A DNA stretch of 64,000 bases from Deltaproteobacteria bacterium (GCA_022710585.1 JAKLGV010000005.1:4053-68052), one strand, 5' to 3'. Counted from the stretch's first letter, positions 29,963-47,850 are shown. The notes: generated from the letters alone by a model not told the origin. Program-made: numbers and translations.

Positions 29963-31228
29963 TTAAACTTTGAATTTTTTCAATCCCTTGAAATCCAGCG
30001 TCGCGAAGTAGTCCTTGACGGTTTCGGCGCGGCGGATCTGCGCCACGTCGCCGTTTTCTCTCAAAAGCAGCTCCGCCGATCGAAGTTTTCCGTTATAGTT
30101 GAAACCCATGGCAAAGCCATGCGCGCCGGCGTCGTGAATCACTATGATATCGCCACTTTCCAGTTTGGGCAGTTTGCGGTCAATGGCGAATTTGTCGTTG
30201 TTCTCACAGAGCGATCCGGTGACGTCATAAACGACATTGTGTGGTTTGTTCTCCTTGCCCATCACCGTAATGTGATGGTAGGCGCCGTAAAGGGCCGGTC
30301 GCATCAGGTTCGCCATACAGGCATCCAGGCCGGCGAACTTTTTATAGGTATCTTTGATATGCAGAACGCGGGCTACCAGATAGCCGTAAGGGCCGGTGAT
30401 GTAGCGGCCGCATTCCGTAAAAAGCTTCAACGGCGCCAGACCATTGGCGACAATGATGTCGTTGTATTTTTTCCTGATGCCCTGGCTCATGATTTTCAGG
30501 TTAATTCGTTTTTGATCCGGTCGGTACGGAATGCCCACCCCGCCGCCGATATTGACGAATTCAAATCTGATTTTCAGCTTTTGTGAAATTTCCACGATCA
30601 GATTGAAGAGAATTTCAGCGGTTTCAACAAAATAGTAGGGATCAAGTTCGTTGGAAGCAACCATCGTGTGAATACCGAAACGCTTAACGCCTTTTTCTTT
30701 GCAGATTTTATAGCCTTCAAAAAGCTGTTCGCGGGTGAAACCGTATTTGGCTTCCTCGGGATGGCCGATAATATGATTTCCTTTTTTCAATCTACCCGGA
30801 TTGTAGCGAAAGCAAATCATCGAAGGCAGTCCGGCGTATTTTTCAAGATATGCGATGTGGCTGATATCGTCAAGATTAATGATGGCTCTTAATTTTTTGG
30901 CCAGCAGAAAGTCTTCTACGGGGGTGTCATTGGAAGAAAACATGATGTCTTCACCGGTAATGCCGGTTTTTTGCGCCATCATCAGCTCGGCAAGCGAACT
31001 GCAATCAGCGCCAAAGCGTTCCCTGCGCAGGATTTTCATCAGATAGGGATTGGGCGCCGCCTTGACGGCGAAAAATTCCTTGAAACCTTCATTCCAGCTA
31101 AAGACATCTCTGAAATCGCGGGCGTTTTCGAGGATGGCCTTTTCGTCATAAATATGAAAAGGCGTCGGATGCTTTTCTATTATCTTTTCGATTTGATTTT
31201 TTGTAAAAGGCAGCGGCTTTCCCGGCAT
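29963..31228 (-). CDS. PLP-dependent Orn/DAP/Arg decarboxylase family, probably diaminopimelate decarboxylase
   Basis: TPFHIYDE start, FAVKAAPNP PLP-lysine context, GGGVGIPY, C-terminal beta-barrel. Confidence 0.7.
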   Translation of the reverse strand: MPGKPLPFTKNQIEKIIEKHPTPFHIYDEKAILENARDFRDVFSWNEGFKEFFAVKAAPNPYLMKILRRERFGADCSSLAELMMAQKTGITGEDIMFSSNDTPVEDFLLAKKLRAIINLDDISHIAYLEKYAGLPSMICFRYNPGRLKKGNHIIGHPEEAKYGFTREQLFEGYKICKEKGVKRFGIHTMVASNELDPYYFVETAEILFNLIVEISQKLKIRFEFVNIGGGVGIPYRPDQKRINLKIMSQGIRKKYNDIIVANGLAPLKLFTECGRYITGPYGYLVARVLHIKDTYKKFAGLDACMANLMRPALYGAYHHITVMGKENKPHNVVYDVTGSLCENNDKFAIDRKLPKLESGDIIVIHDAGAHGFAMGFNYNGKLRSAELLLRENGDVAQIRRAETVKDYFATLDFKGLKKFKV

Positions 31229-33018: not shown

Positions 33019-33368
33019 GAAAATGCAAGGATTAAAACCGCAAAAAATGGGCAAAAATGGATTAAAACCTGTTATTTAAGCACTTTAGAGTAGATAATTT
33101 TTCCATCATTATCGGCATAAAAATTCTTTAAAAAAGCTTCCTTCTGAAAACCGCATGACTCATAGAATTTATGGGTGGGTTCGTATTGTTCCCGGGAGGA
33201 TGTTTCCGCATAGACCTGTTTGCCGCCACTTTGCAAAATAATCTTTTCTGTTTCGGCCATCAGCCGTTTGCCCAGACCTTGTCCCTGAAGGTCGTTAGAA
33301 ACAACAATCCAGTAGATGTCATAGCTGGAAACCGTGGCGGGAACAAGGCCGTAGCACGTGTATCCGAT
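33019..33368. repeat. Left copy of the 350-bp direct repeat
   Basis: Aligns to 39721-40070 at a constant offset of 6702 nt with about 8 mismatches. Confidence 0.9.
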
Positions 33369-33374
33369 AACCAC
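33072..33374 (-). pseudogene. 3' fragment (last 99 codons) of a GNAT acetyltransferase gene, duplicate of 39774-40259
   Basis: 99 of 100 residues align to the C-terminal 99 residues of the intact copy. The N-terminal 62 codons are missing. The apparent start is a fortuitous GTG at the repeat boundary. Confidence 0.85.
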
Positions 33375-33788
33375 CTGACTTTGACAGTTTCACAACCGGG
33401 ATGTGTAAGTAGGTGTAAAGGGGTGGGTTGATTTTGGGGTCGTTTTGTAGTGCCCTGCGTTTTTTTACATCCCCATAATCATTGTGTTTTTTGTCGGAAA
33501 CTGTCGAAGTCAGGAACAATTATACCTTGACACGCAACTTCTTTTTTATTAATAAAAACGCCAGCATTCACCAATAACAACATTTTTATTGAGTCATTTA
33601 ATAATAAAATGTTGTTAAGTTTTACAGATGTCCCCCATAAAATTTGTTTTTTGATGTTTAAAGGCAGTACAAGCTTTTATTACATGGTGCAGTGTAATGA
33701 GAAAATGACTGAGTAGTATTTACGCCGTTGAAACGGCTGGTTTCAAAGTAGTCTCACTGTATTTTAAAAAACTTTTGGAGGTATTTAT

Positions 33789-36383
33789 ATGCCTGGACGT
33801 TTCCTGATGTTCTTTTCGAGAAAACTTCTTCCTGTATTTTTATTCATCTTCATTATTCTTGGCGTGTTGATTTTTAATTCCATTGTGTATTCCGCCGATA
33901 AGCAAACCGTTATTTCCATCGAAGACAGTCCGGCCATGGTGTCTGTAAATCATGTAACCAACAGAGCGGTCATAACCCATGGGCATTCCAATACCGACTT
34001 AATTTCCATCGTTGATCTCAATACGGAAAAAGTCATCAGTGAAATACCGGTGGCGAAATTACCGTCAGGCGTGGCCATTGATACGACTGAAAATGTCGCC
34101 GTTATTACTCATGAGAATGAACGCCTGCTGACGTTTATTGATTTGAATGCAAACCATATTATTGCTGCTCTGGATATCGATACAAAACCCAAAAACATTG
34201 CCGTCAATTCTAAAACTCATATTGCGGCAGTTACCAGCGCTATCGACACAGACGTGTTCTTTATCGATATAAGCACGCGAACAGTTGTGGCCCAAACAGA
34301 TGTCGGAATAAAATCCGGCGACGTGGCAGTTGATCCTGAACGCAACATAGCTTTCGTTCTCAATAAAAACAAAAGCTACATCAATATAATTGATATGAGC
34401 AATTATACCCTTAGCGATTCCATAGCGTTGGATAAAAAACCACAGGCCATTGATATCAATCCGGAAACCAATACCGCCGTAACAACCAATTATCATGATG
34501 GCAGCATTACGATTGTAGATTTGTCAACAAAAAGACTTGTTACAAAAGCACTGGGTGCATTTCCACTGGATGTGGTGATTAATACCATTGACGACCGCGC
34601 GGCTATATTATGTGACAAAAATAAAACACTTCTCCTTTTGGATCTCAAAACAAATGAAATTATCAGAACCTATTCATTACCGCGCCATCCTAGAAGTGTA
34701 GCTGTAAACAGCATTCGCAATACAGCCATAATTGCTGACGACGAAACAGACAGCTTAACGATTATTTCCTTACCCCTTTCTCCAACTCTCCCGAAGGTTC
34801 AAATATTTTCACCGGTTGATAATGCTCAAATTTATTCCAAGGCAGTCCCTGTTTCCGGCACTGTGGAAAACAGCACAGACGTGATGGTTAATGATCTTAG
34901 CGCTTCCGTTAATGGCGGCACGTTTCTCGCAGATTTAATTCTAGGCTCAGGACAAAACACTATTGCCGCAATCGCGACTGATAAATACGGGCGCACCGCC
35001 TGTCATGATATTTTAGTTGATATACTTGTCGGGAAAATAACCGGAACCGTGACTAATGCCTTCACCGGCTGGTTGCTGCCTTCTTCCATTGTATCAATAA
35101 CGGATTCCAAGGGATATAACCAGACCATCAATACAAATGCCGATGGCTCATTTAATGCCGAACTTGCTGCCGGTCCTTTTTCCGGCGCGGTTGAAAAACC
35201 CTGGTATTTACCATATGCATTTAACGGGTCAGTCATCGTGGGAGGAACATCGACATTAGATATCTCCCTCACACCCGTACCACCATTAATAGGAAATATT
35301 CGTGTAACCGATATTACCGAAAGTTCCGCAAAAATAAATTGGACAACGGATCAAATCACCGGCGGCAGTGTGGAATACGGTAAAACAACTGCTTATGGAG
35401 GAATTGCTCCCGATTCTATTGAAAACACTTTTCACAGTATTGCTCTAAGCAATTTATCGCCGGCAACAACATATCATTTTCGTGTAAATGCTATTTCAGC
35501 AAATGGTTCTTCTGCTGTATCCAATGATGTTACTTTTAAAACGAAGGGAAATATTGAAATTACCATCAACGCACCGGCAGACGGCATCACGATAAATAAC
35601 AATAGCGTAATCGTGACAGGTTCAATAACTAACCCCGCTAATGTGGAAACCGGTATCACAGTAAATGGCATGCCTGTATCACTTAACAACAATCAATTTG
35701 CCGTCAACAATGTGCCACTTAATGCGGGACAAACTACCATAACCGTTACGGCAACAGATGTAAACGGAACTACCGTGTCCAAATCCATTTCCGTAAATGC
35801 AACCATTCCGGAAAAATTCATCGCGCTTAGCGCTTACCCGGAATCGGGAGTAGCGCCACTGGAAGTATCTTTAAAGATCAATGGCTCTTTCAGTATTATT
35901 AATCCTATTATTACAACTGCTGGACCTGGTGCAGTCGAACAACTCGCCTGTGACAATCCTGATGAATTCAAATACAAGCTGACATCGGAAGGGATTTATT
36001 ATTTTACCGCACAAGTAACCTGCCCGGACGGAAACCTTTATCAGGATACAAAGGCCGTCACTGTACTTCCCCTGGCACAAATTGATGCATTGCTGAGGGC
36101 AAAATGGGAAGCATTTTCCAGTGCCCTTGCCAATAAGGATATCTCGACAGCACTAACTATGATGCATCCTGTAAGCTCAGTACGTTATCAAACAATGTTT
36201 AATCTCTTGAAAGATCAATTGCCGGCTATTGTAGCTACTCATGCCAACCTAACCTTAGTATCCATAATTAATGAGGAAAGGGCGTGGTATGATTTGAGAG
36301 CATCAGAAAGCGAAGGACAATTTACCTATAGAGTTGTTTTTGTAAAAGACACAAATGGCTTATGGCGTATTCTGGAATTCTAA
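33789..36383 (+). CDS. Exported multidomain protein: YVTN-type beta-propeller, Ig-like, CarboxypepD_reg-like, FN3, Ig-like/PKD-like, and a C-terminal NTF2/SnoaL-like domain
   Basis: GGAGG RBS and a signal anchor. Repeated ..N.A.V(T/L)..........I(V/I)D(L/M)(S/N)T... blades. INWTTDQ...VEYGKTTAYG...TYHFRV FN3-like segment. C-terminal LRAKWEAF...WRILEF. Confidence 0.7.
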   Translation: MPGRFLMFFSRKLLPVFLFIFIILGVLIFNSIVYSADKQTVISIEDSPAMVSVNHVTNRAVITHGHSNTDLISIVDLNTEKVISEIPVAKLPSGVAIDTTENVAVITHENERLLTFIDLNANHIIAALDIDTKPKNIAVNSKTHIAAVTSAIDTDVFFIDISTRTVVAQTDVGIKSGDVAVDPERNIAFVLNKNKSYINIIDMSNYTLSDSIALDKKPQAIDINPETNTAVTTNYHDGSITIVDLSTKRLVTKALGAFPLDVVINTIDDRAAILCDKNKTLLLLDLKTNEIIRTYSLPRHPRSVAVNSIRNTAIIADDETDSLTIISLPLSPTLPKVQIFSPVDNAQIYSKAVPVSGTVENSTDVMVNDLSASVNGGTFLADLILGSGQNTIAAIATDKYGRTACHDILVDILVGKITGTVTNAFTGWLLPSSIVSITDSKGYNQTINTNADGSFNAELAAGPFSGAVEKPWYLPYAFNGSVIVGGTSTLDISLTPVPPLIGNIRVTDITESSAKINWTTDQITGGSVEYGKTTAYGGIAPDSIENTFHSIALSNLSPATTYHFRVNAISANGSSAVSNDVTFKTKGNIEITINAPADGITINNNSVIVTGSITNPANVETGITVNGMPVSLNNNQFAVNNVPLNAGQTTITVTATDVNGTTVSKSISVNATIPEKFIALSAYPESGVAPLEVSLKINGSFSIINPIITTAGPGAVEQLACDNPDEFKYKLTSEGIYYFTAQVTCPDGNLYQDTKAVTVLPLAQIDALLRAKWEAFSSALANKDISTALTMMHPVSSVRYQTMFNLLKDQLPAIVATHANLTLVSIINEERAWYDLRASESEGQFTYRVVFVKDTNGLWRILEF

Positions 36384-36403
36384 TGAAGGAGAGATGAAAA
36401 AAT

Positions 36404-37027
36404 ATGAAAAAAATTATTACGTTATTAATACTTATCATTCTTACAATTTCTTTACCTGCCGCATATGCCGGATCGATTTTTTATAACAAGCCTGAATTCA
36501 AAGGCAGGATTATTGACGCGGAAACAAAAGAGCCGATCGAAGGGGCTGTGGCTGTGGTTTTGTATGACAAGTGGGCGATGATAGGTGGTCCGGGCGGACC
36601 AAGTTCTTATACCTTTCATGCCAAGGAAACGCTGACGAATAATGAAGGAGAATTTTCACTTCCATCGTATTCTTCATTAACCTTATCCAGTATGGATGCC
36701 GGTGTTAGATTCATATTTTACAAACCAGGATTTATGGCAGGCTATGGTCCAGCAAATATAAGTCCGCTTTTGGAAGAGGCATATTTTTCCACCGGCAATG
36801 TTGGTGAGGAAATGGAGATAGCAGCAAAAACCTTCGACAAACGCAGTTATATTAAATGGAAAGGACCTGTGGGAATTGTGGAATTGAAGAAAGCAAGGAC
36901 TAGGGAAGAAAGATTACGATCAATGCCATCGCCACCAACTGATTTCACATCAAATGAACTTCCAATATTTATAAAAATTATAAATGATGAAGGCCATAAT
37001 CTTGGATTGAAGGGGGAATATAAATGA
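36404..37027 (+). CDS. Exported protein with a carboxypeptidase-regulatory-like (transthyretin-fold) domain
   Basis: Signal peptide ...PAAYA|GS and a GRIIDAETKEPIEGAVAVV motif. Confidence 0.6.
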   Translation: MKKIITLLILIILTISLPAAYAGSIFYNKPEFKGRIIDAETKEPIEGAVAVVLYDKWAMIGGPGGPSSYTFHAKETLTNNEGEFSLPSYSSLTLSSMDAGVRFIFYKPGFMAGYGPANISPLLEEAYFSTGNVGEEMEIAAKTFDKRSYIKWKGPVGIVELKKARTREERLRSMPSPPTDFTSNELPIFIKIINDEGHNLGLKGEYK

Positions 37028-39420
37028 TGGTTAAAGTTAAGAGCATTTTAAACTCATTGTTTATTGTTATAATTGCATTTAGTTTTTCTTCTCGGGTAAT
37101 GGCCTTGGCACCTGATACTCATAGTGCAATCAATAAGTACATTACTCAGAGAGAATATTTAGACGATTATTTAAAGAATCAATTAGGAATACCAGATGGC
37201 AAAGATACTTTTTTCAATAATAAAAAAGTATTTGACTTAGTAGCCAATGGCGGCGCAGAAGAAGATGCTGGCATACGCTCGATGAATCATTTTCTAAATC
37301 CGATCACTAATAAAGGTTTGAGCCTTAATTATTCAGCTTTGGAATGGGCTACAATGCCCTTATTTAATCAAAAGCTTTCACCTTTTGCTTCATGGAACGA
37401 TGTCCGTTATTACTATTTTAAAGCTCTAACCTCGGTAGATAAAACAACCAGAGATGACAATTTCGCTATGACATTTCAGGGCATCGGAAAGGTCATGCAT
37501 TTGGTGGAGGACATGTCGGTGCCGGCACACACGCGCAGTGACAAGCACCCCTCACTCTGGATTATCGGTGGCGACGATTATGAAAGATGGTCAAAAACAT
37601 TCATTAAAGATATAGCTCAAATTGTTAATGATAATCCAACGACATTTTTTGAATATAATGATACAGCCTTTTTAGTTTCAAAACTCTTTGATACAAATCA
37701 ATATATCGGAACAAATCCAGACATCACAATATCATCTAAAAGTATCGGTCTTTCGGAATATACAAACGCAAATTTCTTAAGTTTTGACACAATTTTTACG
37801 GACGATTTTTCATATCCTTCTTATAACCCCGGAATAACTGTAGAGCGATACGTTGAGAATGAAATACTATACTTAAGTAAGATTGGCGTTGGTGAAGACA
37901 TTAAATATTTTGCCCGTGCTAACAATTTTTATAATTATCTTCCGTCTGATTACAAGAAATTAGCATTACATTTGGATGATGATAAGATTTATAATAATTA
38001 TGCCCAATTTCTCATTCCCCGCGCCATTGGTTATTCCTCTCAGGTCTTAAAATACTTTTTCCGTGGGCAATTGGACGTGGTGCTGGTTGATGGAAATATC
38101 AAAGTCAAAAATGCTTCAGATGAAACTATTAGTAATGGTGAATTCAAGCTTTATTATGATAATGCCGCTGGCATGCGAACGCTATTAACAACCGCTAGTG
38201 CAAATACCCTTGCGCCCAATGGTGATCCACAAACCATTAACTTTACCCTGCCTGAAGGTGTAACAGCAAAATCATACATGCTTGTATATCAAGGTCAATT
38301 GGGTGAGGAACCTAACGCTGTGATCGGAAAATTTATTCCTGTCGATAACAATCTTCCAATAATCTATATAGAGGTAGGATCTCAGTGTATTGTGTGGGAT
38401 GTTGAAAATGGAAAATTTTACGATAAAGTTACTACAGATTCCAGCACACCTGAAAACCCCCAATATGCCGTGTTTCCTTGTGATCCGACAACTATATCAA
38501 TGTGGAAAGAACAACAGACTAAAACAACCATGCATAATGCGTCAATGTGGAAGTGTGGAAGGATGGAGCCACCGGCTAATGGTGCGGAGGAGCAACTGTG
38601 CCCATTTGCTCTTGATGCAGTAGGCGCAATGGATACTTATTCAAAAATATATGAGTCTTCTGATGTGTATCCTCAGTATAGTTATGGCTCAGAGGATATT
38701 CTTATCTATTCAAAAAACTCTAAATACGATGATGGCTTTTTACGGTCTAACAATTCTGATGTGTTAGAATTAAACTCTTCCGTCTGGTACAGGGTAAAGT
38801 GGGAAAGGCATATTTCTGGAGACTCCTTCGTGACGAGTGATTATTGGTGGGGGGCCGGGTGTAAACAGAGCTCCGACGTCCAAGAAAAGTACAGTATTTA
38901 TTCTGTGGGTGAACCTTTTGGAATACCCTTTTTTGAAATATACAATCATCAAATCTGGGAACGTGAATATTATGGTAAAGGTCAGGATGATTATCCTTAT
39001 TGTAGAGGAAGTTGGAATGCAACGAGGTTAGCTCCACATCGTAACTCAGTTATTTATAAATTAATATGGTCAGACAAACTGGTGTTGCACGTTGCGTATG
39101 TAACGGCGGTTATGAACAAAGAAGAAAATAATTATGATGTTATTTATGATGATGAATATGGTGGATTTTACAGCGGACCTGGTACTAGCGTGTTGCAACC
39201 AAGGATTCAGGGATTAAAGGTAAATTTAGACTATAAAAAGGACCGTCTAATAAAAGACGGTAAATACGACTTGGGACATATACCAGTAGCTCCAGCTAAT
39301 TTAAAAACTGCCATACAAGATTTAATAGATAAAAGGTATATGGATCTGGGGTTACCTGTGACTGATATTCCATACAATATGTTTATGGATGTTATTTTTT
39401 ACGAAGTGAAAAGTATATAA
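37024..39420 (+). CDS. Exported protein with a zinc phospholipase C / P1-nuclease-like N-terminal domain and a large unknown C-terminal region
   Basis: Signal peptide ...RVMA|LA. Motifs HSAINKY, EEDAGIRSMNHFLNP and VMHLVEDMSVPAHTRSD. The start overlaps the upstream stop (ATGA). Confidence 0.6.
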   Translation: MMVKVKSILNSLFIVIIAFSFSSRVMALAPDTHSAINKYITQREYLDDYLKNQLGIPDGKDTFFNNKKVFDLVANGGAEEDAGIRSMNHFLNPITNKGLSLNYSALEWATMPLFNQKLSPFASWNDVRYYYFKALTSVDKTTRDDNFAMTFQGIGKVMHLVEDMSVPAHTRSDKHPSLWIIGGDDYERWSKTFIKDIAQIVNDNPTTFFEYNDTAFLVSKLFDTNQYIGTNPDITISSKSIGLSEYTNANFLSFDTIFTDDFSYPSYNPGITVERYVENEILYLSKIGVGEDIKYFARANNFYNYLPSDYKKLALHLDDDKIYNNYAQFLIPRAIGYSSQVLKYFFRGQLDVVLVDGNIKVKNASDETISNGEFKLYYDNAAGMRTLLTTASANTLAPNGDPQTINFTLPEGVTAKSYMLVYQGQLGEEPNAVIGKFIPVDNNLPIIYIEVGSQCIVWDVENGKFYDKVTTDSSTPENPQYAVFPCDPTTISMWKEQQTKTTMHNASMWKCGRMEPPANGAEEQLCPFALDAVGAMDTYSKIYESSDVYPQYSYGSEDILIYSKNSKYDDGFLRSNNSDVLELNSSVWYRVKWERHISGDSFVTSDYWWGAGCKQSSDVQEKYSIYSVGEPFGIPFFEIYNHQIWEREYYGKGQDDYPYCRGSWNATRLAPHRNSVIYKLIWSDKLVLHVAYVTAVMNKEENNYDVIYDDEYGGFYSGPGTSVLQPRIQGLKVNLDYKKDRLIKDGKYDLGHIPVAPANLKTAIQDLIDKRYMDLGLPVTDIPYNMFMDVIFYEVKSI

Positions 39421-39448
39421 AGACTATAAAAGAAAAAAACATCGGGAA

Positions 39449-39712
39449 GTGGAGGAGATGACCCGACTGTCGCAATCCATTATTACAGAAATGGAGGAGA
39501 CCAGACAGCCCTCCCTGCCGTTTCTGGATCCGCTCAAAGTTTTAAAAACCCGGCGCCGGGAAGAAGAGGTCAGCGATACCGTTCAGATGCGGAATTTGCG
39601 GGAAGAGCAGTTGCATGCTCAATCGAGCGTGATGATTGATCTGGCGTCTCAAAAAAAATATGTGATTCCATCCCATGTCACCGTCAACCAGAAAAAACTC
39701 TACCAGCTCTGA
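39449..39712 (+). CDS. Doubtful small ORF (87 aa, charged, GTG start), possibly a gene remnant
   Basis: ORF only. Host-like GC, no RBS, no recognisable family. Confidence 0.2.
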   Translation: MEEMTRLSQSIITEMEETRQPSLPFLDPLKVLKTRRREEEVSDTVQMRNLREEQLHAQSSVMIDLASQKKYVIPSHVTVNQKKLYQL

Positions 39713-39720
39713 CTATCTAA

Positions 39721-40070
39721 GAAAATGCAAGGATTAAAACCGCAAAAAATGGGCAAAAATAGATTAAAACCTGTTATTTAAGCACTTTAGAGTAGATAAT
39801 TTTTCCATCATTATCGGCATAAAAATTCTTTAAAAAAGCTTCCTTCTGAAAACCGCATGACTCATAGAATTTATGGGTGGGTTCGTATTGTTCCCGGGAG
39901 GATGTTTCCGCATAGACCTGTTTGCCGCCACTTTGCAAAATAATCTTTTCTGTTTCGGCCATCAGCCGTTTACCCAAACCATGTCCCTGAAGGTCATTGG
40001 CAACAACAATCCAGTAGATGTCATAGCTTGAAACCGTGGCGGGAACAAGGCCGTAGCACGTGTATCCGAT
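39721..40070. repeat. Right copy of the 350-bp direct repeat
   Basis: See 33019-33368. Confidence 0.9.
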
Positions 40071-40259
40071 GACCTGATTTTCCATTTCCGCAAACAGAAA
40101 CCGGTAGGAGCTCGCATCCTGCTGTTCCAGTTTTTCTTCGGCCAGTTGGATGGCAATTTCTATTTCCTCTTCGGAAAAGAAGCCGCTGAATTCAACCAGG
40201 CGGGCAATGGCTTCAACATCCGCAGGGGCTAATTGTCGGCGAAAGGCAATGGTTTTCAT
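39774..40259 (-). CDS. GNAT family N-acetyltransferase (last gene of the aminomutase operon)
   Basis: VANDLQGHGLGKRLM motif A, 161 aa. Confidence 0.85.
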   Translation of the reverse strand: MKTIAFRRQLAPADVEAIARLVEFSGFFSEEEIEIAIQLAEEKLEQQDASSYRFLFAEMENQVIGYTCYGLVPATVSSYDIYWIVVANDLQGHGLGKRLMAETEKIILQSGGKQVYAETSSREQYEPTHKFYESCGFQKEAFLKNFYADNDGKIIYSKVLK

Positions 40260-40282
40260 AAATATTTCAGTCTAAAGATATA

Positions 40283-41266
40283 TTATTTTAATGCGTTATC
40301 AACAATCAACCCGATAGCTTCAGAATACTTAATATCCGCCCGGGCAAGGGCCGCGGCAAAACCGGCATCCGGCGACAGGCAGGGATTTGTGTTGACCTCC
40401 AATACCCAGGGATTGCCGTTGCCGTCAACCCGGAAATCCACGCGGGCATATCCGCGCAAAGAAAAAACATCCCAGCACTGCAGAGCCATGTCGCTCAGCG
40501 CTGATATTAATGGAGCATCCTCGTCTGGAAAATCGAATTTCCGGATTGTGTTGTTGTACTCAAAGGAATCCGCGTGCCATTTGGCCCTGTAATCAACGAT
40601 TTTCAGTTTATCCGGACCATAATCCTGAAACAGCATTTCGGCGATGGGCAACACTCTGGCGCCGGTCTTGTCTGATAGGAGGGCAACGTTGAATTCGCGG
40701 CCTTCGATGTAAGCTTCGGCATAGCAGGAGCCGCCCAGTTTTTCCTCGCGAAGCCTCATTTCTTTTATGAGGCGCTCTTTTCCCGCGTAAGGAATGAGCG
40801 AGTTTTCATCAAGACCGATGGAAGCATGTTCCCAGGAGGACTTGATTAAATATGATCCGCCCTCATCGCGTTGCGAGGCGAAGCCGTTCTGCTCCAACCA
40901 GTCCGGAGTGGCGATGCCGGCGAAGCGCATCATTTTTTTGGCCAGCGGCTTATTGGATGTCTGGAACACGGCTTCCGTGCCGCACCCGGTATAGGAAATT
41001 TTCAGTGCGTCAAGAACCGCCGGAGCAAAATGAATCAGACTGCCTCTGGCGTTCAGCGTTTCCACGATGTTGAAAACGACCGCCGGCTTTAGCAATTGCA
41101 GCATGGCGATGTTTTGATTCAGATTGAGTTCAAACGGCAAAAGGGCAGGTTCATAATTCAGTGCGCGCAGGGCTTCGGCGATGGCTTGAGCCTGAACCAG
41201 GCAATCCAGTTCATCATCCGGAGCATCCGGCGTAATCTCGCTGTGTAAAATGACAATTTTTTTCAT
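40283..41266 (-). CDS. ATP-grasp ligase, D-Ala-D-Ala-ligase-like
   Basis: Pre-ATP-grasp N domain, central KSSWEHASIG and YIEGREFNV, C-terminal RVDFRVD...PWVLEVNTNPCLS Mg/ATP motif. Confidence 0.8.
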   Translation of the reverse strand: MKKIVILHSEITPDAPDDELDCLVQAQAIAEALRALNYEPALLPFELNLNQNIAMLQLLKPAVVFNIVETLNARGSLIHFAPAVLDALKISYTGCGTEAVFQTSNKPLAKKMMRFAGIATPDWLEQNGFASQRDEGGSYLIKSSWEHASIGLDENSLIPYAGKERLIKEMRLREEKLGGSCYAEAYIEGREFNVALLSDKTGARVLPIAEMLFQDYGPDKLKIVDYRAKWHADSFEYNNTIRKFDFPDEDAPLISALSDMALQCWDVFSLRGYARVDFRVDGNGNPWVLEVNTNPCLSPDAGFAAALARADIKYSEAIGLIVDNALK

Positions 41267-41293
41267 CTGAATCTTTTCCGGTCTCGCCGGTGC

Positions 41294-42292
41294 TTATTTT
41301 TTTACGCGCTTCAGGGCGGATTTCAGAATGGCGCTGATCAGTTTATGATAGCTCATGCCTATTTTATTGCATAAGATGGGCAAATCCGAGCGTACGGGAT
41401 TGAGTCCGGCCAGAGAATTGACTTCCATAAAATGGGGGATGCCGTGAACATTAGATCGCAAATCAATGCGGCCGGCATCTTTTAAATCCAGTCCGCGCCA
41501 GGCCATCAGGGAAATTTCCATGGCTTTTTGCGCCTCCTCATCGTTGACCAGAACATACTCCACCAATTTGTCGTAGTGCTCTTTGTTTTCGTAGGAGTAG
41601 GCGTTCTTTTCCGCGTCGGGTTTGAGAATGACTTCCATGGCCCCCAGCGCCCGCGCGTCTTTACCCGTTCCCAGAATACCCACTGTAAATTCTCGTCCGG
41701 GAAGATACGTTTCCACCAGCACCGGCTGACGAAAATCCTTGAGAAGCTGTTTGCAGACCTTTTCCAGATTTTTCCGCGATGTTATTTTGGAAAGCGCCGT
41801 AATGCCTTTGCCCGTTCCCTCGGCCACGGGCTTGGCAAAAAGGGGAAAGGGAAGATGAACCATGTCTATATCTTTGACGTCGCTCACCACGGTAAAGTCA
41901 GGCGTGGGGATTCCCAGATCGCGCAGAATCTGTTTGGTGAAGCCTTTGTGCAGCGTCACAGCGTTGCCCAGAGGATCGGAAAACGTATAGGGAATGTTGA
42001 ACGCTTCCAGCAGGGCCGGCACCTGCGCCTCGCGGCCGAAACCGTACAGGCCTTCCGCGATGTTAAAAACCAGATCCCAGCGGTCTCCTTTCGCGAGCCG
42101 ACGGGTCAGAGCCTTGATGTTGCCGATACGATCGGTTTGAAAGCCGCCATCCAGAATGACCCTTTCAATGGCTTCAATGGTGTCGGGGAGATCGAATTCA
42201 GCGGTTTCTTCGAGACCGTATCCTTCTTTCAGGTAATCTTCGCGCAGATCATAGGTGAGGCCGATTTTGAGTTTGTTGCGGACACGACTCAC
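41294..42292 (-). CDS. ATP-grasp ligase, D-Ala-D-Ala-ligase family (second paralogue)
   Basis: PLFAKPVAEGTGKGI, YLPGREFTVGILG and RIDLRSN...PHFMEVNSLAGL motifs. Confidence 0.8.
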   Translation of the reverse strand: MSRVRNKLKIGLTYDLREDYLKEGYGLEETAEFDLPDTIEAIERVILDGGFQTDRIGNIKALTRRLAKGDRWDLVFNIAEGLYGFGREAQVPALLEAFNIPYTFSDPLGNAVTLHKGFTKQILRDLGIPTPDFTVVSDVKDIDMVHLPFPLFAKPVAEGTGKGITALSKITSRKNLEKVCKQLLKDFRQPVLVETYLPGREFTVGILGTGKDARALGAMEVILKPDAEKNAYSYENKEHYDKLVEYVLVNDEEAQKAMEISLMAWRGLDLKDAGRIDLRSNVHGIPHFMEVNSLAGLNPVRSDLPILCNKIGMSYHKLISAILKSALKRVKK

Positions 42293-42330
42293 GATGGATT
42301 TACCTACCCCCTGCCATAAGATTGCGGTGA

Positions 42331-43641
42331 TTAATGAATGTCTTTCAACATGGCGTGATTATCGGGGTAGCGGTACGTGTTGCCTTCGTAATTGCGCAGC
42401 AGCAGGTCGCCGTTTTCCCAGCCGATGGCGTATTCGGGAAGCAATGGAATTTTGCCGCCGCCGCCCGGGGCATCTACAACATAGGTAGGTACAGCGTAAC
42501 CCGTGGTGTGGCCGCGCAGTCCCTGAATAATTTCCAATCCCTTGTTGATCGGCGTCCGGAAATGGGAGGAGCCGGGAATGGGATCACATTGATAGAGATA
42601 ATAAGGACGCACCCGGATTTGCAGTTGCCCGTGGACCAGTCTGGTCATCGTGGCCACATCATCATTGACGTTGGCCAGTAGAACGGTCTGGCTGCCCAGC
42701 GGAATACCGGCATCGGCCAGACGAATGCAGGCGGCGCTCATTTCCGGCGTCAGTTCTTTGGGATGGGTAATATGAATGCTCATCCAGAGCGGATGGTATT
42801 TTCTCAGCATGGTGGTCAGCGCCGGCGTGATGCGCTGCGGCAGTACAACCGGGACCTTGGTACCGATGCGCACCATTTCGACATGGCGGATTTTGTGCAG
42901 ACGCGCCAGCAGCCATTCCAGCTTCTCGTCGGAAAGCGTGAGCGGGTCGCCGCCGGAGAGCAGCACGTCGCGGACATTTTTATTACCGGCGATATAATCG
43001 ATGGCTGTATTCCATTTTTCGTAATTCAAGGACCGGTGGGCGCTCCGTTCGATGATTCGGGAGCGGGTGCAGTAACGGCAGTACGTCGAGCAGGTATCGG
43101 TCACCAGAAACAGCACGCGGTCGGGATAGCGGTGGATAATACCCGGCACGGGAGAATCCACATCTTCGCAGAGCGGATCTTCCTCTTCACCCGCGGTGTG
43201 CAGACATTCATCCACCACCGGCACCACGCAGCGTCGCAGCGGATCGGCGGGATCGTCGGCGTCCAGCAGACTGGCGTAATAAGGTGTAATGGAAACGGGC
43301 AGCGCGCCGGAATGATGCATCATGGCCTGACGCTCGTTGTCCGAAAGATTGATGATCTGCGAGAGTGTGTCCACATCCCGGATGGCGTTGTGCAACTGCC
43401 AGCGCCAGTCGAACCACTCCAGGCGGGTAATATCGGGATATTGGTTTGTTCGAAAGATACGGGATCGGGCGGAATCTTTAAAAGGAAATAAGGCACTGCT
43501 TGACTTTTGTTTGACCGCGTAAGGCTGCGCGATCTCGGAGCTGAATAACAAAAAGTCACTTACATTATTTTTAGCATGAACAAGACCGGTCAACTGACCA
43601 GGAGGTTCCTCCTCCTCATTAAACAGGGTCTCGCTTTCCAT
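42331..43641 (-). CDS. kamA: KamA-family radical SAM/PLP aminomutase with lysine-2,3-aminomutase-type substrate residues
   Basis: CSTYCRYC cluster motif, HRYPDRVLFLVTD, YQCD and VVDAPGGGGK. Near-colinear with Clostridium subterminale LAM. Confidence 0.85.
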   Translation of the reverse strand: MESETLFNEEEEPPGQLTGLVHAKNNVSDFLLFSSEIAQPYAVKQKSSSALFPFKDSARSRIFRTNQYPDITRLEWFDWRWQLHNAIRDVDTLSQIINLSDNERQAMMHHSGALPVSITPYYASLLDADDPADPLRRCVVPVVDECLHTAGEEEDPLCEDVDSPVPGIIHRYPDRVLFLVTDTCSTYCRYCTRSRIIERSAHRSLNYEKWNTAIDYIAGNKNVRDVLLSGGDPLTLSDEKLEWLLARLHKIRHVEMVRIGTKVPVVLPQRITPALTTMLRKYHPLWMSIHITHPKELTPEMSAACIRLADAGIPLGSQTVLLANVNDDVATMTRLVHGQLQIRVRPYYLYQCDPIPGSSHFRTPINKGLEIIQGLRGHTTGYAVPTYVVDAPGGGGKIPLLPEYAIGWENGDLLLRNYEGNTYRYPDNHAMLKDIH

Positions 43642-43709
43642 TCGTGCCTCCTTGATGCGGGTGTCCCTCCCCCAAAATAAATTTTCACAAAAAAATCTGT
43701 TGATTTACG

Positions 43710-43737
43710 AATGTACTCATACAAAAATTTTTGTCAA
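43710..43737 (-). promoter_or_regulatory. Candidate sigma70 promoter of the kamA-like operon
   Basis: On the minus strand: TTGACA (43737-43732), 16-nt spacer, TACATT (43715-43710). AAGGAGG RBS at 43655-43649. Confidence 0.4.
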
Positions 43738-44175
43738 CAATTTTTTGCACTTTTGCCGAAAAAAAATGAAAAAATTTTGCCGAGGATGACGTCAAAAAAA
43801 ATTTTCATGCCCGTCATCCATTTTATCCCGGAGACAAACTCAAAATTTTGACGATGAACGGCTCTCTTGCTAAAGCGTCGATATCGCTGTAACCCGCATG
43901 AACATTGACTCAGAGAAGAATCATTACCAAAGAATGCGCCGGATCACTTCATCAGTGGTATCCGTCTGCGCGTTATGAGAAACGGAAACGTCTGATGCTG
44001 CCGTTTAACGCCGACCGGCAGCATATCGAACGAAAGAAAAGCGCTTGGTTCGTGATGCCCATATTTTTCGCTCCGGGAAAAATCAATGGTCAGGGAAAAT
44101 TTTTTCTAGTATGATACGGATAATCATCCGGCGAAACCGTAAAATCGTCCGCCCATTCCACTATGGAGTTGATTA

Positions 44176-44949
44176 ATGCCCGAATTACCTGAAGTCGAAA
44201 CGCTGTGCCGCCAGTTGCGCCGGAAAATTTCCGGCGGGAAGATTCTGGACAGCAAAATTTACGACCAAAAGCTCACCGGCATTAAAAATCTCAAGGGATG
44301 CGTCGTCTCGGCAGTGGAGCGCAGGGGAAAAACCATCACGATTTTTCTCGCTGAAGGACCATGCGCGCTCATTCATCTGCGCATGACGGGGCGGTTCTTC
44401 TGGCAGAAGGATTCATCAAGGCCGAAGCACAGTCGATGGAAAATGACCTTCAAGGACGGCCACGTATTTCTCGTTGATCCCCGACGTTTCGCGACCATCA
44501 ACGTTCAAAAGGCAACGCCGGAGAAAATTCAAAACGACCTTATCACCGATTTCGACGAGAAAACTTTCTTCGAAAAACATGCTGGGCGAAGGGTGAACAT
44601 TAAAAACCTGCTGATGGATCCGCGGGCCATAGCCGGCATCGGCAACATTTACGTCTGTGAGATTCTCCATCGCGCGGGCATCTCGCCGCTCAAGTCGGCT
44701 TTGGATTTATCCGGAGAAGAATGGAAAAAAATTTTTACCAACGCCCGGCGCATTCTAAAAAAGGCGATTGAAAAGAGAGGCACTTCCATTTCCGATTGGC
44801 GGGACCTGTATGGCAGGAAAGGTGAAAATCAGCATGAGTTGAAAGCCTACGGTCGGGACGGGAAACGCTGTCTGGTTTGCGGCGGATCCATCCGCCGGAT
44901 CAAACAGGGCGGACGCAGCACTTTTTATTGTCCAGATTGCCAGACATAA
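44176..44949 (+). CDS. mutM: Formamidopyrimidine-DNA glycosylase
   Basis: MPELPEVE N terminus and a C-terminal CxxC...CxxC zinc finger. Confidence 0.9.
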   Translation: MPELPEVETLCRQLRRKISGGKILDSKIYDQKLTGIKNLKGCVVSAVERRGKTITIFLAEGPCALIHLRMTGRFFWQKDSSRPKHSRWKMTFKDGHVFLVDPRRFATINVQKATPEKIQNDLITDFDEKTFFEKHAGRRVNIKNLLMDPRAIAGIGNIYVCEILHRAGISPLKSALDLSGEEWKKIFTNARRILKKAIEKRGTSISDWRDLYGRKGENQHELKAYGRDGKRCLVCGGSIRRIKQGGRSTFYCPDCQT

Positions 44950-45147: not shown

Positions 45148-47850
45148 ATGAGTGATACATTTATTTTGAATGGAAAAGAGACGCCCTTCAAACAGGGGCA
45201 AATGATTCTGGATGCCGCAAAAAACGGCGGCATAGAAATTCCCACACTTTGCTATTTAAAAGGATCAGCGCCGACCGGCGCCTGTCGTGTCTGCTGCGTT
45301 GAGGTGAAGGGAGCGCGGTCGCTGGTGGCGGCGTGTTCGACGCCGGTTACACCCGGCATGGAGGTGACGACGGACAGCCAGGCGGTTCACACGGCGCGAA
45401 AACTGAACATTGAACTGCTGCTTTCCGCCGGCAAACACAACTGCATTACCTGCGAAGCCAACGGCGATTGCCGTCTGCAGGATCTGGCCTATTTTTATAA
45501 GATCACTGCTCCGCGCTTCGCCGAAAGTGAACAGCGCTATCCGACAGAGGATGTCAATCCATTAATCGTTCGCGATTTCAGCCGCTGCATTCTTTGTGGA
45601 CGTTGCGTGCAGGCCTGCAACGAAGTGGTCGTGAATCGCGCCATCTCGCAGGGCTATCGCGGCAAAAAAAGCAAGGTCGTTACCGGTGGCGATAAAGCGT
45701 ACAATGATGAAATTAGCGAATGCGTTTTCTGCGGGCAGTGCGTTCAGGTTTGTCCGGTCGGCGCTCTGACGGAGAAAAAAGCCAAAGGTCTGGGACGTCC
45801 CTGGGAAACTCAGAAAATCCGCACGACCTGTCCTTACTGCGGCGTCGGTTGTCAGCAGTTACTTCATGTCAAAGATGGTAAAATCATCAAGGTCACAGCC
45901 GTCGAAGACGCCCAACCCAATCAGGGACGGCTTTGTGTGAAGGGCCGTTTTGCGTATGACTTCATCTATTCCGAGGAAAGATTGAAGACCCCGCTGATTC
46001 GCGAGAAGAATGGGGAGTTCCGCGAGGCCTCCTGGGATGAAGCTCTGGATCTTGTCGCCACAAAATTCAAGGAGATCATCAAGAAAGACGGGCCGGACGC
46101 CATTGCCGGTGTCAGTTGCGCCCGCAGTATCAACGAAGATTCCTATCAGATGCAGAAATTTTTCCGCGCGGTAATCGGTACGAATAACATCGATCACTGC
46201 GCGCGTACCTGACACGCTCCCACCGTCGCCGGTCTGGCGACTTCATTCGGTTCGGGCGCGATGACCAATTCTTTCGCCGATTACGCGAAGGCCAAAATGA
46301 TTATTCTTGTCGGCACCAATATTACCGAAGCGCATCCGGTCGCCGGCACTTTTGTTAAAGACGCGGTGCTGGCCGGCGCCAAGCTGATTGTCATTGATCC
46401 GCGGCGCACCGAGATGGTTGATTTTGCCGATATGTTCATTCAGCTCAAAGTCGGCTCCGACGTGGCGCTGATCAATGCGTTGATGAACGTCCTGATTACG
46501 GAAAATCTTTACGATAAAAAATATGTGGATTCCTGCACAGAGGGATTTGAGGAATTAAAGAAAAAGGTGATGGAATACACGCCGGAAAAGGTCGCCAAGA
46601 TCAGCGGCATTTCTGCCGATACGATCCGCGAGCTGGCTCGTACGATGGCTTCGATCAAACCGGCGATGCTGATGTACACGCTCGGCATTACCGAACACAT
46701 CTGCGGCGTGAACAACGTTATGTCCTGCGCCAATCTCCAGATGCTGCTGGGCAATGTCGGCGTTGACTGCGGCGGCGTCAACCCGCAGCGCGGCCAGAAC
46801 AACGTTCAGGGCGCCTGCGACATGGGCGCGCTGCCCAATGTTTTCCCCGGCTATCAGCAGGTGGCCAATGCGGAAGCCCGGGCGAAATTCGAAAAGGCTT
46901 GGAACGTCAAATCGCTTCCGGACAAACCCGGCATGATGATGCCGACGATGATGAAAAATCTGACCACCGGAAAAGTCAAAGGCTTCTATGTCTTTGGCGA
47001 GAATCTGGCCAACACAGAGCCGGATATTAAACATGTTGAGCATGAACTGCAATCGGCGGAATTTCTGGTCTGCCAGGATATTTTCCCGACGGAAACAACA
47101 CGCTTTGCTCACGTGATTCTGCCGGCCGCCGCCTGGAGCGAAAACGACGGCACCTTCGCCAGTTCAGAACGGCGCGTCAACCGCGTGCGCACGGCCAGTG
47201 TGCCGCCGGGCGATGCCAAACCCAACTGGTGGATCTTCAAAGAGCTGGCCAAACGTTTCGGTCACGAATGGGCATCCAACAGCGCTCAGGAAATCTGGGA
47301 TAACGAAGTATCCGTTCTGGCGCCTTCCATGGCTGGAATCAAATATGCCCGTCTGGAAGGTGACGGTTTGCAGTGGCCTTGCCCCAGCGCAGATCATCCG
47401 GGCACCCCGACACTGCACAGAGGCGGCAAGTTCACCCGCGGTCTGGGTATGCTCAAAGCCATCGATTACATACCGCCCGCGGAAGTTCCCGATAAGGAAT
47501 ACCCGATGGTGCTTTCCACCGGCCGTCGCCTGTATCATTATCACACCAGGACGCAGACCGGACGCTGCGAGGGGATCAACGATCTGCTGGGTGAGGAAAC
47601 GGCTGACATCGCCATGGCCGATGCCGAAGCTATGGGCATTGAGAACGGCGAGAAGATTCTAGTGAAGTCCCGCCGCGGCAAAGTTGAGGTCAAGGCCCGC
47701 GTCACCAAGGAGGTTCCGCAAGGCCTGGTCTGGATGGCTTTCCATTTCCGCGAAGGTTGCGCCAACTGGCTGACCAATCCGGTTTATGATCCGATTACGC
47801 AAACGGCTGAATACAAGGCCTGCGCGGTGAAGATTGAAAAACTGAAATAA
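45148..47850 (+). CDS. fdhA: Formate dehydrogenase alpha subunit (Mo/W-bis-MGD) with a NuoG-like 2Fe-2S/4Fe-4S N-terminal extension. Selenocysteine at TGA 46210-46212.
   Basis: The two track ORFs (45148-46212 and 46261-47850) are in the same frame. The junction reads [30 protein letters not shown], the canonical FDH active-site Sec/Cys context. TTCPYCGVGC is the MopB 4Fe-4S motif. Confidence 0.9.
46213..46241 (+). other. SECIS-like recoding hairpin
   Basis: 17-nt stem-loop gtcgcc-GGUCU-ggcgac (46225-46241) starts 12 nt after the UGA. The loop resembles the GGUCU apical loop of E. coli fdhF SECIS. Confidence 0.7.

Follow-up and report, generated by a model that had tools for sequence, protein, structure and literature searches.

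What might a bacterium build from beta-lysine with two amide ligases of its own? The question is raised by a four-gene operon of a Deltaproteobacteria bacterium (GCA_022710585.1), located in a stretch of 64,000 nucleotides (JAKLGV010000005.1:4053-68052) that is referred to here as the window. The operon lies on the minus strand and encodes, in the direction of transcription, a KamA-family radical S-adenosylmethionine (SAM) protein (KamA, 42331-43641, 436 aa), two ATP-grasp proteins designated AG1 (41294-42292, 332 aa, GTG start) and AG2 (40283-41266, 327 aa), and a GNAT-family acetyltransferase (GNAT, 39774-40259, 161 aa). The intergenic gaps are 38, 27, and 23 nucleotides, respectively. The closest homologues are named Smithella, Smithellaceae, or Syntrophaceae, which places the window in a Syntrophales bacterium. 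A first-pass annotation, made from the sequence of the window, proposed that the operon is a pathway for an undescribed beta-lysine conjugate.

The answer favored here, held with moderate confidence, is that the cassette would direct the biosynthesis of a small cytoplasmic N-acetylated beta-lysine amide or peptide of two or three components. It is favored because KamA is of the lysine 2,3-aminomutase (LAM) type, because the ligases are catalytically complete and differ from D-alanine--D-alanine ligases (Ddl), and because the gene order is conserved and fusions join the genes. The deacetylase that accompanies some copies is also of the acetylpolyamine amidohydrolase (APAH) type, and no conserved protein substrate is encoded with the cassette. 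The enzyme families and the beta-lysine chemistry of the operon are both known; it is their combination for which no product is described. No description of the four-gene set was found in the open-access full-text literature, in keeping with the word "undescribed", and prior work elsewhere is possible.

The Aminomutase

KamA is 53% identical to the LAM of Clostridium subterminale (PDB 2A5H) and is colinear with it over residues 7-371 (E = 1e-133), much as the first-pass annotation had read it. Identity to E. coli EpmB is 32%. The best family is the lysine 2,3-aminomutase equivalog TIGR03820, on which KamA scores 496 bits, below the cutoff of 525.4. On TIGR00238, which models the KamA family in general, the score of 361 exceeds the cutoff of 199. 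Scores fall short on the models for EpmB (262 bits, cutoff 369), glutamate 2,3-aminomutase (Eam; 419 bits, cutoff 650), and arginine 2,3-aminomutase of the BlsG type (392.5 bits, cutoff 600). The type of aminomutase, on which the annotation had made its proposal depend, is thus that of LAM and AblA rather than that of EpmB or the glutamate enzyme.

The residues that define LAM chemistry are present. The radical SAM CxxxCxxC motif (C184, C188, and C191) aligns with C125, C129, and C132 of LAM. R193 corresponds to the carboxylate-binding R134, and K397 in the GGGGK motif corresponds to K337, the lysine that binds pyridoxal 5'-phosphate (PLP). D353 (in YQCD) and D390 (in VVDAP) correspond to D293 and D330, which bind the epsilon-ammonium group of lysine. 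Eam has Lys and Asn at these last two positions; KamA has Asp at both and does not carry the Eam signature. The annotation had pointed out the cluster motif, the PLP lysine, and both lysine-binding Asp residues. The alignment bears this out, and the equivalents of the cluster Cys residues, R134, D293, D330, and K337 are invariant in all 67 cassette-linked KamA copies from other genomes. With this set of residues, KamA would almost certainly act on lysine.

As judged by sequence, the cassette KamA is a distinct subfamily of LAM. The inter-subunit zinc site is absent, and C268 of LAM is replaced by D328, a position at which the cassette copies have D, N, or S. The Cys-rich C-terminal tail of canonical LAM is also missing from the cassette copies. 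The window copy ends five residues past the position aligned with LAM residue 371, and the LAM_C model is matched only at positions 1-60 of 127. Most cassette copies are extended at the N-terminus, by roughly 40-100 residues, and by about 60 in the window copy.

The ATP-Grasp Ligases

AG1 matches Pfam PF07478, and the closest relatives of both ligases in sequence and fold are Ddl and VanA. Both proteins match only Ddl-type models and structures, and both miss all Ddl/Van hidden Markov model cutoffs widely, with best Ddl scores of 148 bits (AG1) and 100 bits (AG2) against a cutoff of 243. Identity to Ddl is 21-26%. AG1 and AG2 are themselves paralogues with 25-28% identity, and they have in common residues that are derived relative to Ddl, for example an Asp at the V18 position and an Asn at I60. 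The two are read as old paralogues of a single lineage. An AlphaFold model of AG1 from a shallow alignment (mean predicted local distance difference test score, pLDDT, of 59) retrieves only Ddl with Foldseek, and a single-sequence model of AG2 (pLDDT 38) is unusable.

To compare active sites, 74 AG1 and 53 AG2 sequences were mapped onto E. coli DdlB. The ATP-grasp residues K97, K144, E180, E187, K215, R255, D257, E270, and N272 of DdlB are kept throughout both sets, except for one AG2 sequence in which E187 is changed to D. Acyl-phosphate chemistry would be expected of both proteins, since the catalytic residues are all retained. The D-Ala-binding positions are different. In AG1, E15 is replaced by A, S150 by T, Y216 by E238, and L282 by D303, and S281 is kept. 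In AG2, E15 is replaced by D, S150 by A, Y216 by W230, S281 by A, and L282 by G, and C296 occupies the position of G276.

Because the D-Ala-binding residues are replaced, AG1 and AG2 are classed as other than cell-wall D-Ala-D-Ala ligases. They are probably active amide ligases with new substrates that differ from one another. The invariant acidic residues E238 and D303 of AG1 would suit a cationic substrate. The annotation had treated the ligases as part of the pathway and not as bystanders, and this is upheld by the intact catalytic residues, the replaced D-Ala sites, and the fusions described below.

The GNAT

The GNAT matches Pfam PF00583. Its top family matches are RimI and an N-acetyltransferase of peptides that are synthesized by ribosomes and modified after translation (RiPPs). 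It is RimI-like but scores below the RimI cutoff (57.1 bits, cutoff 86.4). On the AblB model TIGR03827, which has 266 positions, it scores 20.5 bits against a cutoff of 205, and its length is only 161 aa. By score and length, the operon GNAT is not classed as AblB.

The GNAT aligns with PDB entry 2R7H, deposited as "putative D-alanine N-acetyltransferase of GNAT family", over 155 residues (E = 1.5e-41). Since identity over this length is about 50%, the two very likely belong to the same family. The deposited name appears to be a guess, and no functional study of 2R7H was found in the open-access literature. A placement of 2R7H among the genes of Desulfovibrio G20 around Dde_3044-3047 found no support, and Dde_3047 encodes a phosphatase.

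Conservation and Fusions of the Cassette

Relatives of AG1 are widespread. The family comprises 660 clusters (50% identity) at E < 1e-30. Among 185,579 species-representative genomes, a scan with a 14-sequence alignment (one of 41 sequences being too divergent) found AG1 relatives in at least 594. In a plasmid collection, only paralogues of about 30% identity were found, in unrelated contexts on rhizobial plasmids.

Gene content was counted in the 80 closest AG1 loci, using only the loci that could be judged for the gene in question. KamA is immediately upstream of AG1 in 63 of 72 loci, and AG2 is downstream of AG1 in 59 of 66. The trio of KamA and both ligases is complete in 44 of 53 loci and the full set of four in 39 of 53, and a GNAT gene was counted in 44 of 55. 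The core of the cassette is KamA, AG1, and AG2, with the GNAT as a frequent accessory. The annotation had named a failure of the four genes to co-occur in other genomes as a reason to abandon the pathway. With the full set in the same order in many phyla, that failure is therefore refuted.

The order KamA-AG1-AG2-GNAT is found in Thermodesulfobacteriota (Syntrophales, Desulfatiglans, Desulfobacterales, and Desulfobulbales), Acidobacteriota (Aminicenantes and Thermoanaerobaculia), Planctomycetota, Bacteroidota, Ignavibacteriales, Gammaproteobacteria, and several candidate phyla. Spirochaetota have KamA and both ligases without the GNAT. Two Polyangiaceae (Myxococcota) loci contain AG1 alone, and one Kofleriaceae locus contains AG2, GNAT, and AG1 without KamA.

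Some of these genes are fused in nature. P0254 is a KamA-AG1 fusion and P0241 is an AG1-AG2 fusion. About 30 of the best 150 AG1-family representatives are double ATP-grasp proteins.

The cassettes can be sorted into two apparent subtypes. In one (for example, loci L018, L026, L029-L031, L034, L042, L055, L058-L060, and L063), AG2 (about 35% identity) and the GNAT (about 30-41%) are far from those of the window, and KamA and AG1 are still 55-65% identical. Mirror-tree correlations among the four proteins are significant and are strongest between AG2 and GNAT distances (r = 0.68). They carry little weight, because shared species history would also yield them. This strongest correlation hints that AG2 and the GNAT work on one common part of the product.

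Optional Partners

Some cassettes are accompanied by a fifth gene, of roughly 600 aa, which was seen at 15 loci (L016, L021, L032, L034, L036, L037, L045, L050, L058, L063, L076, L079, L081, L082, and L085). It is usually located between AG2 and the GNAT and is otherwise immediately beside the cassette. The encoded protein has a GNAT-like N-terminus fused to a domain of the histone deacetylase (HDAC) fold. In the PDB, this domain is closest to acetylpolyamine amidohydrolases (6PHR, E = 1.6e-73, with 3Q9B and 3MEN as further matches). The match to APAH structures implies that the substrate carries an acetyl group on a terminal aliphatic amine. Unlike APAH, the fifth gene has the added N-terminal GNAT-like domain and a beta-lysine cassette as its context. 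The window has no copy of it.

In three Planctomycetota loci (L043, L046, and L075), a gene for a CxxCxxCC protein (PF03692, a YkgJ-like putative Zn/Fe-binding family) lies between KamA and AG1. In P0251 the CxxCxxCC domain is fused to the N-terminus of the AG1 homologue. This protein might be a redox or metal partner of the radical SAM enzyme. Two Smithella-like loci (L001 and L007) have a DMT_6 (PF04342) membrane protein of 115-116 aa between AG2 and the GNAT, which is absent from the window and may serve to export a cationic product.

Many Thermodesulfobacteriota have an NtrC-type sigma-54 activator, a small open reading frame (ORF), and promoter-like TGGCAC-N5-TTGC sites ahead of the cassette (L015, L017, L018, L022, L026, L028, L031, L042, L080, and others). 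The window copy differs, with a sigma-70-type promoter in place of the sigma-54-type sites. The small ORF is conserved, is 77-125 aa in length, has no Pfam match, and precedes KamA in 11 Thermodesulfobacteriota loci. No gene for a target or carrier protein is conserved in the cassette across the phyla examined, and none is present in the window copy.

Proposed Pathway and Alternatives

In the proposed pathway, KamA would convert L-lysine to beta-lysine by the radical SAM/PLP mechanism of LAM. AG1 would then use beta-lysine to form the first amide bond, with an acyl phosphate as intermediate, and AG2 would form a second amide bond. The GNAT would acetylate a remaining free amine, and in this way cap or neutralize the product. 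The acetylated position would most plausibly be a terminal, epsilon-type amine. The step order KamA, AG1, AG2 is suggested by the order of the domains in the KamA-AG1 and AG1-AG2 fusions. The product could serve as a compatible solute or as another abundant small metabolite. Comparable chemistry exists elsewhere: Ngg uses a GNAT and an ATP-grasp domain to build the osmolyte N-acetylglutaminylglutamine amide (NAGGN), and the ligation of a beta-amino acid by an ATP-grasp enzyme is known from carnosine synthase.

Several observations weigh against a small acetylated amide of this kind. The cassette contains no dedicated gene for a co-substrate. The GNAT is an accessory, present in only 44 of the 55 loci, and since it is missing in about a fifth of them, acetylation would not be obligatory. 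The hosts come from peat, groundwater, freshwater, and digesters as well as from marine sites, which makes a role as osmolyte alone less convincing. An Rfam scan found no riboswitch for salt or lysine upstream of the operon. The structural models of AG1 and AG2 are of too low quality for reading the substrate pockets.

Acting repeatedly, in the manner of cyanophycin synthetase or RimK, the ligases could instead produce a beta-lysine polymer or oligomer, to serve as a nitrogen store or a polycation that is primed, capped, or mobilized by acetylation and deacetylation. This is considered unlikely. It draws on the presence of two distinct ligase sites that are often fused in one protein, as in two-site polymer synthetases. 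In a version of the idea that is likewise doubtful, the fused or paired ligases would be a template-independent polymerase for a beta-lysine polyamide, with the GNAT and the polyamine-type deacetylase as an on/off switch. Residues 109-208 of AG1 do show a weak local match to cyanophycin synthetase (E = 1.9e-9), but the similarity is limited to the ATP-binding segment and scores 36 bits against a cutoff of 877. AG1 has neither the family score nor the ATP-grasp/Mur-ligase-like two-domain architecture by which cyanophycin synthetases are recognized. The sigma-54-type promoter matches and the adjoining NtrC-type activator of some Thermodesulfobacteriota copies would fit a nitrogen store; NtrC-family activators are numerous, however, and regulate many processes, and the promoter of the window copy is of the sigma-70 type. 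A gene resembling diaminopimelate decarboxylase (lysA-like) lies nearby in Syntrophales, which also speaks for a polymer, and the cassette has no conserved cyanophycinase-like or other depolymerase gene, which speaks against it. The ligases could also attach beta-lysine to a protein or another macromolecule, or attach amino acids onto beta-lysine there, with the GNAT acetylating the adduct, by a chemistry like that of RimK, LysX, or tubulin-tyrosine ligase (TTL), or as an ATP-grasp alternative to EpmA. This possibility is quite unlikely. ATP-grasp enzymes of these three types modify proteins, the best families of the GNAT are RimI and the RiPP N-acetyltransferase, and a small conserved ORF lies ahead of KamA in the 11 Thermodesulfobacteriota loci, all of which speaks for this reading. 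The ligases of the cassette, however, are Ddl-like and not of the RimK, LysX, or TTL type. The optional deacetylase belongs to the polyamine (small-molecule) type and not to the protein-deacylase type. There is also no target or carrier gene shared across phyla, and the 23-38 nucleotide gaps of the window operon hold none.

A plain ablA/ablB pair making N-epsilon-acetyl-beta-lysine, with the Ddl-like genes as unrelated passengers such as cell-wall D-Ala-D-Ala ligases, is very unlikely. The operon does contain both a KamA and a GNAT. The LAM of Syntrophus aciditrophicus was also classed in a 2010 comparative paper as "ablA clustering with ablB" (PMC2821294). If that locus is a copy of the cassette, its ligases were passed over in the classification. 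The score and length of the GNAT are nevertheless far from those of AblB, and the ligases fail all Ddl cutoffs and are without the D-Ala-binding residues. Nearly all loci have them in the interval from KamA to the GNAT, and some genomes carry them as fusions, either with KamA or of one ligase with the other. KamA and both ligases are also found without the GNAT. Highly improbable, and the least likely of the readings considered, is a catabolic or salvage cassette for lysine fermentation through beta-lysine or for the recycling of acetylated amines. LAM does start clostridial lysine fermentation, and a deacetylase is sometimes present, but ATP-consuming ligases are biosynthetic, and no linked gene for beta-lysine 5,6-aminomutase, 3,5-diaminohexanoate dehydrogenase, or a cleavage enzyme was found.

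Comparison with Known Systems

AblA and AblB (KamA and YodP in B. subtilis) resemble the cassette in that they start with a LAM-type enzyme with the same catalytic and lysine-binding residues and end with a GNAT. The cassette differs by the two ATP-grasp ligases located between the aminomutase and GNAT genes and by a GNAT that is a 161-aa RimI-like protein. Its KamA differs from AblA in falling just under the equivalog cutoff, in lacking the zinc site, and in having the N-terminal extension of about 60 aa.

In the EpmB/EpmA system, as would be the case here, a KamA-family aminomutase feeds beta-lysine to an ATP-dependent ligase. The cassette aminomutase is closer in identity to LAM than to E. 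coli EpmB, and its ligases are ATP-grasp proteins and not paralogues of lysyl-tRNA synthetase (LysRS) like EpmA. Neither efp nor epmA is adjacent; the neighbors of KamA in the window are fpg and the ATP-grasp genes. Ddl genes differ in context as well, as the AG1 and AG2 genes are linked to KamA and not to mur or fts genes.

The Ngg/AsnO pathway for NAGGN, compared by its description only, follows the same logic: its small N-acetylated peptide solute is put together by the combined action of a GNAT and an ATP-grasp ligase. The cassette uses a different ATP-grasp subfamily, has two separate ligases and no amidotransferase, and would be supplied with a beta-amino acid by its aminomutase.

To our knowledge, the fates of beta-lysine in bacteria and archaea are few: it is acetylated to an osmolyte, attached to elongation factor P (EF-P), fermented, or made part of a few antibiotics. 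Two dedicated amide ligases would extend this list. Syntrophs, sulfate reducers, planctomycetes, and Bacteroidota are among the hosts of the at least 594 genomes with AG1 relatives, and this spread points to a common unnamed metabolite or polymer in anaerobes of environmental importance. If the polymer reading were true, it would be a new cyanophycin-like nitrogen store or polycation in anaerobes of many phyla. A large group of proteins, whose present labels are "D-alanine--D-alanine ligase", "ATP-grasp domain protein", or "hypothetical", would gain a function, and so would the orphan structure 2R7H. Annotations that assign N-epsilon-acetyl-beta-lysine synthesis may need to be revisited where a cassette GNAT has been taken for ablB.

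Promoter and Upstream Region

A sigma-70-type promoter, TTGACA-16-TACATT, is located at 43710-43737 on the minus strand (promoter scan, 10/12). A Shine-Dalgarno sequence, AAGGAGG, was read from the sequence at 43648-43654 on the same strand, six nucleotides 5' of the KamA ATG. An upstream alignment of eight Smithella-like relatives shows that the -35 and -10 hexamers and the A/T-rich block upstream of them are conserved, which makes the promoter more than a chance match. The AAGGAG ahead of KamA is kept in relatives as well. No convincing terminator was found on the minus strand inside the four-gene block. The annotation's picture of four same-strand genes with short gaps behind one sigma-70-like promoter and an AAGGAGG ribosome-binding site holds in each part.

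Two repeats that the annotation had noted just upstream fared less well. Both are present in the window, the inverted one (ggatgacg/cgtcatcc) at 43784-43791 and 43812-43819 and the direct one (TTTTGCCGA) at 43751 and 43775, but as candidate regulatory features neither is conserved in relatives. The inverted repeat was rejected as an operator on the upstream alignment of relatives. It is one of 16 inverted repeats of at least eight nucleotides in the 540-nucleotide A/T-rich spacer upstream of the operon and is probably due to chance.

An Rfam E-value scan of 39400-44300 gave no family at threshold, and none on the operon leader. A weak match to "Betaproteobacteria toxic sRNA" at 39432-39502 on the minus strand (27.8 bits, gathering score 50, E = 0.013) lies in the inserted segment described below and is most likely due to chance. 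In the 5' untranslated region (UTR), a short hairpin-like sequence of the GGGAGG.../...CCC type is located next to the Shine-Dalgarno sequence, at approximately 43655-43675 on the minus strand. Hairpin-like sequences recur in relatives with other stems, such as GGAAGC-CT-GCTTCC, and this remains an unconfirmed candidate. RNAalifold predicted zero pairs from an automatic alignment of the 5' UTRs of nine relatives. None of the four operon proteins matched the PADLOC defense-system models.

Insertion and Neighboring Genes

The 3' end of the operon borders an insertion of 6.3 kb (approximately 33373-39720) with a low GC content (37-42%), flanked by direct repeats of GNAT sequence. The right copy (39721-40074, about 354 nucleotides) consists of the last 301 nucleotides of the GNAT and 53 nucleotides downstream. 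The left copy (33019-33372) is an orphan 3' fragment of the GNAT that lies next to PhoU_div at the far edge of the insertion. The two copies differ by nine mismatches over about 354 nucleotides, clustered at the inner end; a length of 303 nucleotides was first detected. The duplication of the GNAT by a neighboring insertion, as the annotation had it, is real and covers these 301 and 53 nucleotides.

On the plus strand the insertion carries three genes, with products of 864, 207, and 798 aa; the 864-aa product is a surface-type protein with beta-propeller, fn3, and CarboxypepD_reg domains. No integrase gene is evident in the 6.3-kb insert. Relatives without the insertion have GNAT, PhoU_div, and PHO4 in that order. 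Two assemblies made independently show the arrangement with the insertion, and the repeat is where two further contigs break off. The insertion resembles the outcome of a duplication-insertion or of single-crossover, Campbell-type integration.

The lysA-like gene of the window is located at 29963-31228 on the minus strand, the strand of the operon, and scores 291 bits on the lysA model against a cutoff of 297.9. In locus L001 a matching decarboxylase gene is found three genes downstream of the cassette, after PHO4. Its presence near the cassette could reflect lysine-supply synteny or coincidence.

On the plus strand, at 45148-47850, two ORFs of 354 and 529 aa make up one molybdopterin formate-dehydrogenase-like gene that is split by gene callers. 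The interruption is an in-frame TGA at 46210-46212, in the context ...NNIDHCART-TGA-HAPTVAGL.... The TGA, read as HCART-U-HAPT, is probably a selenocysteine codon.

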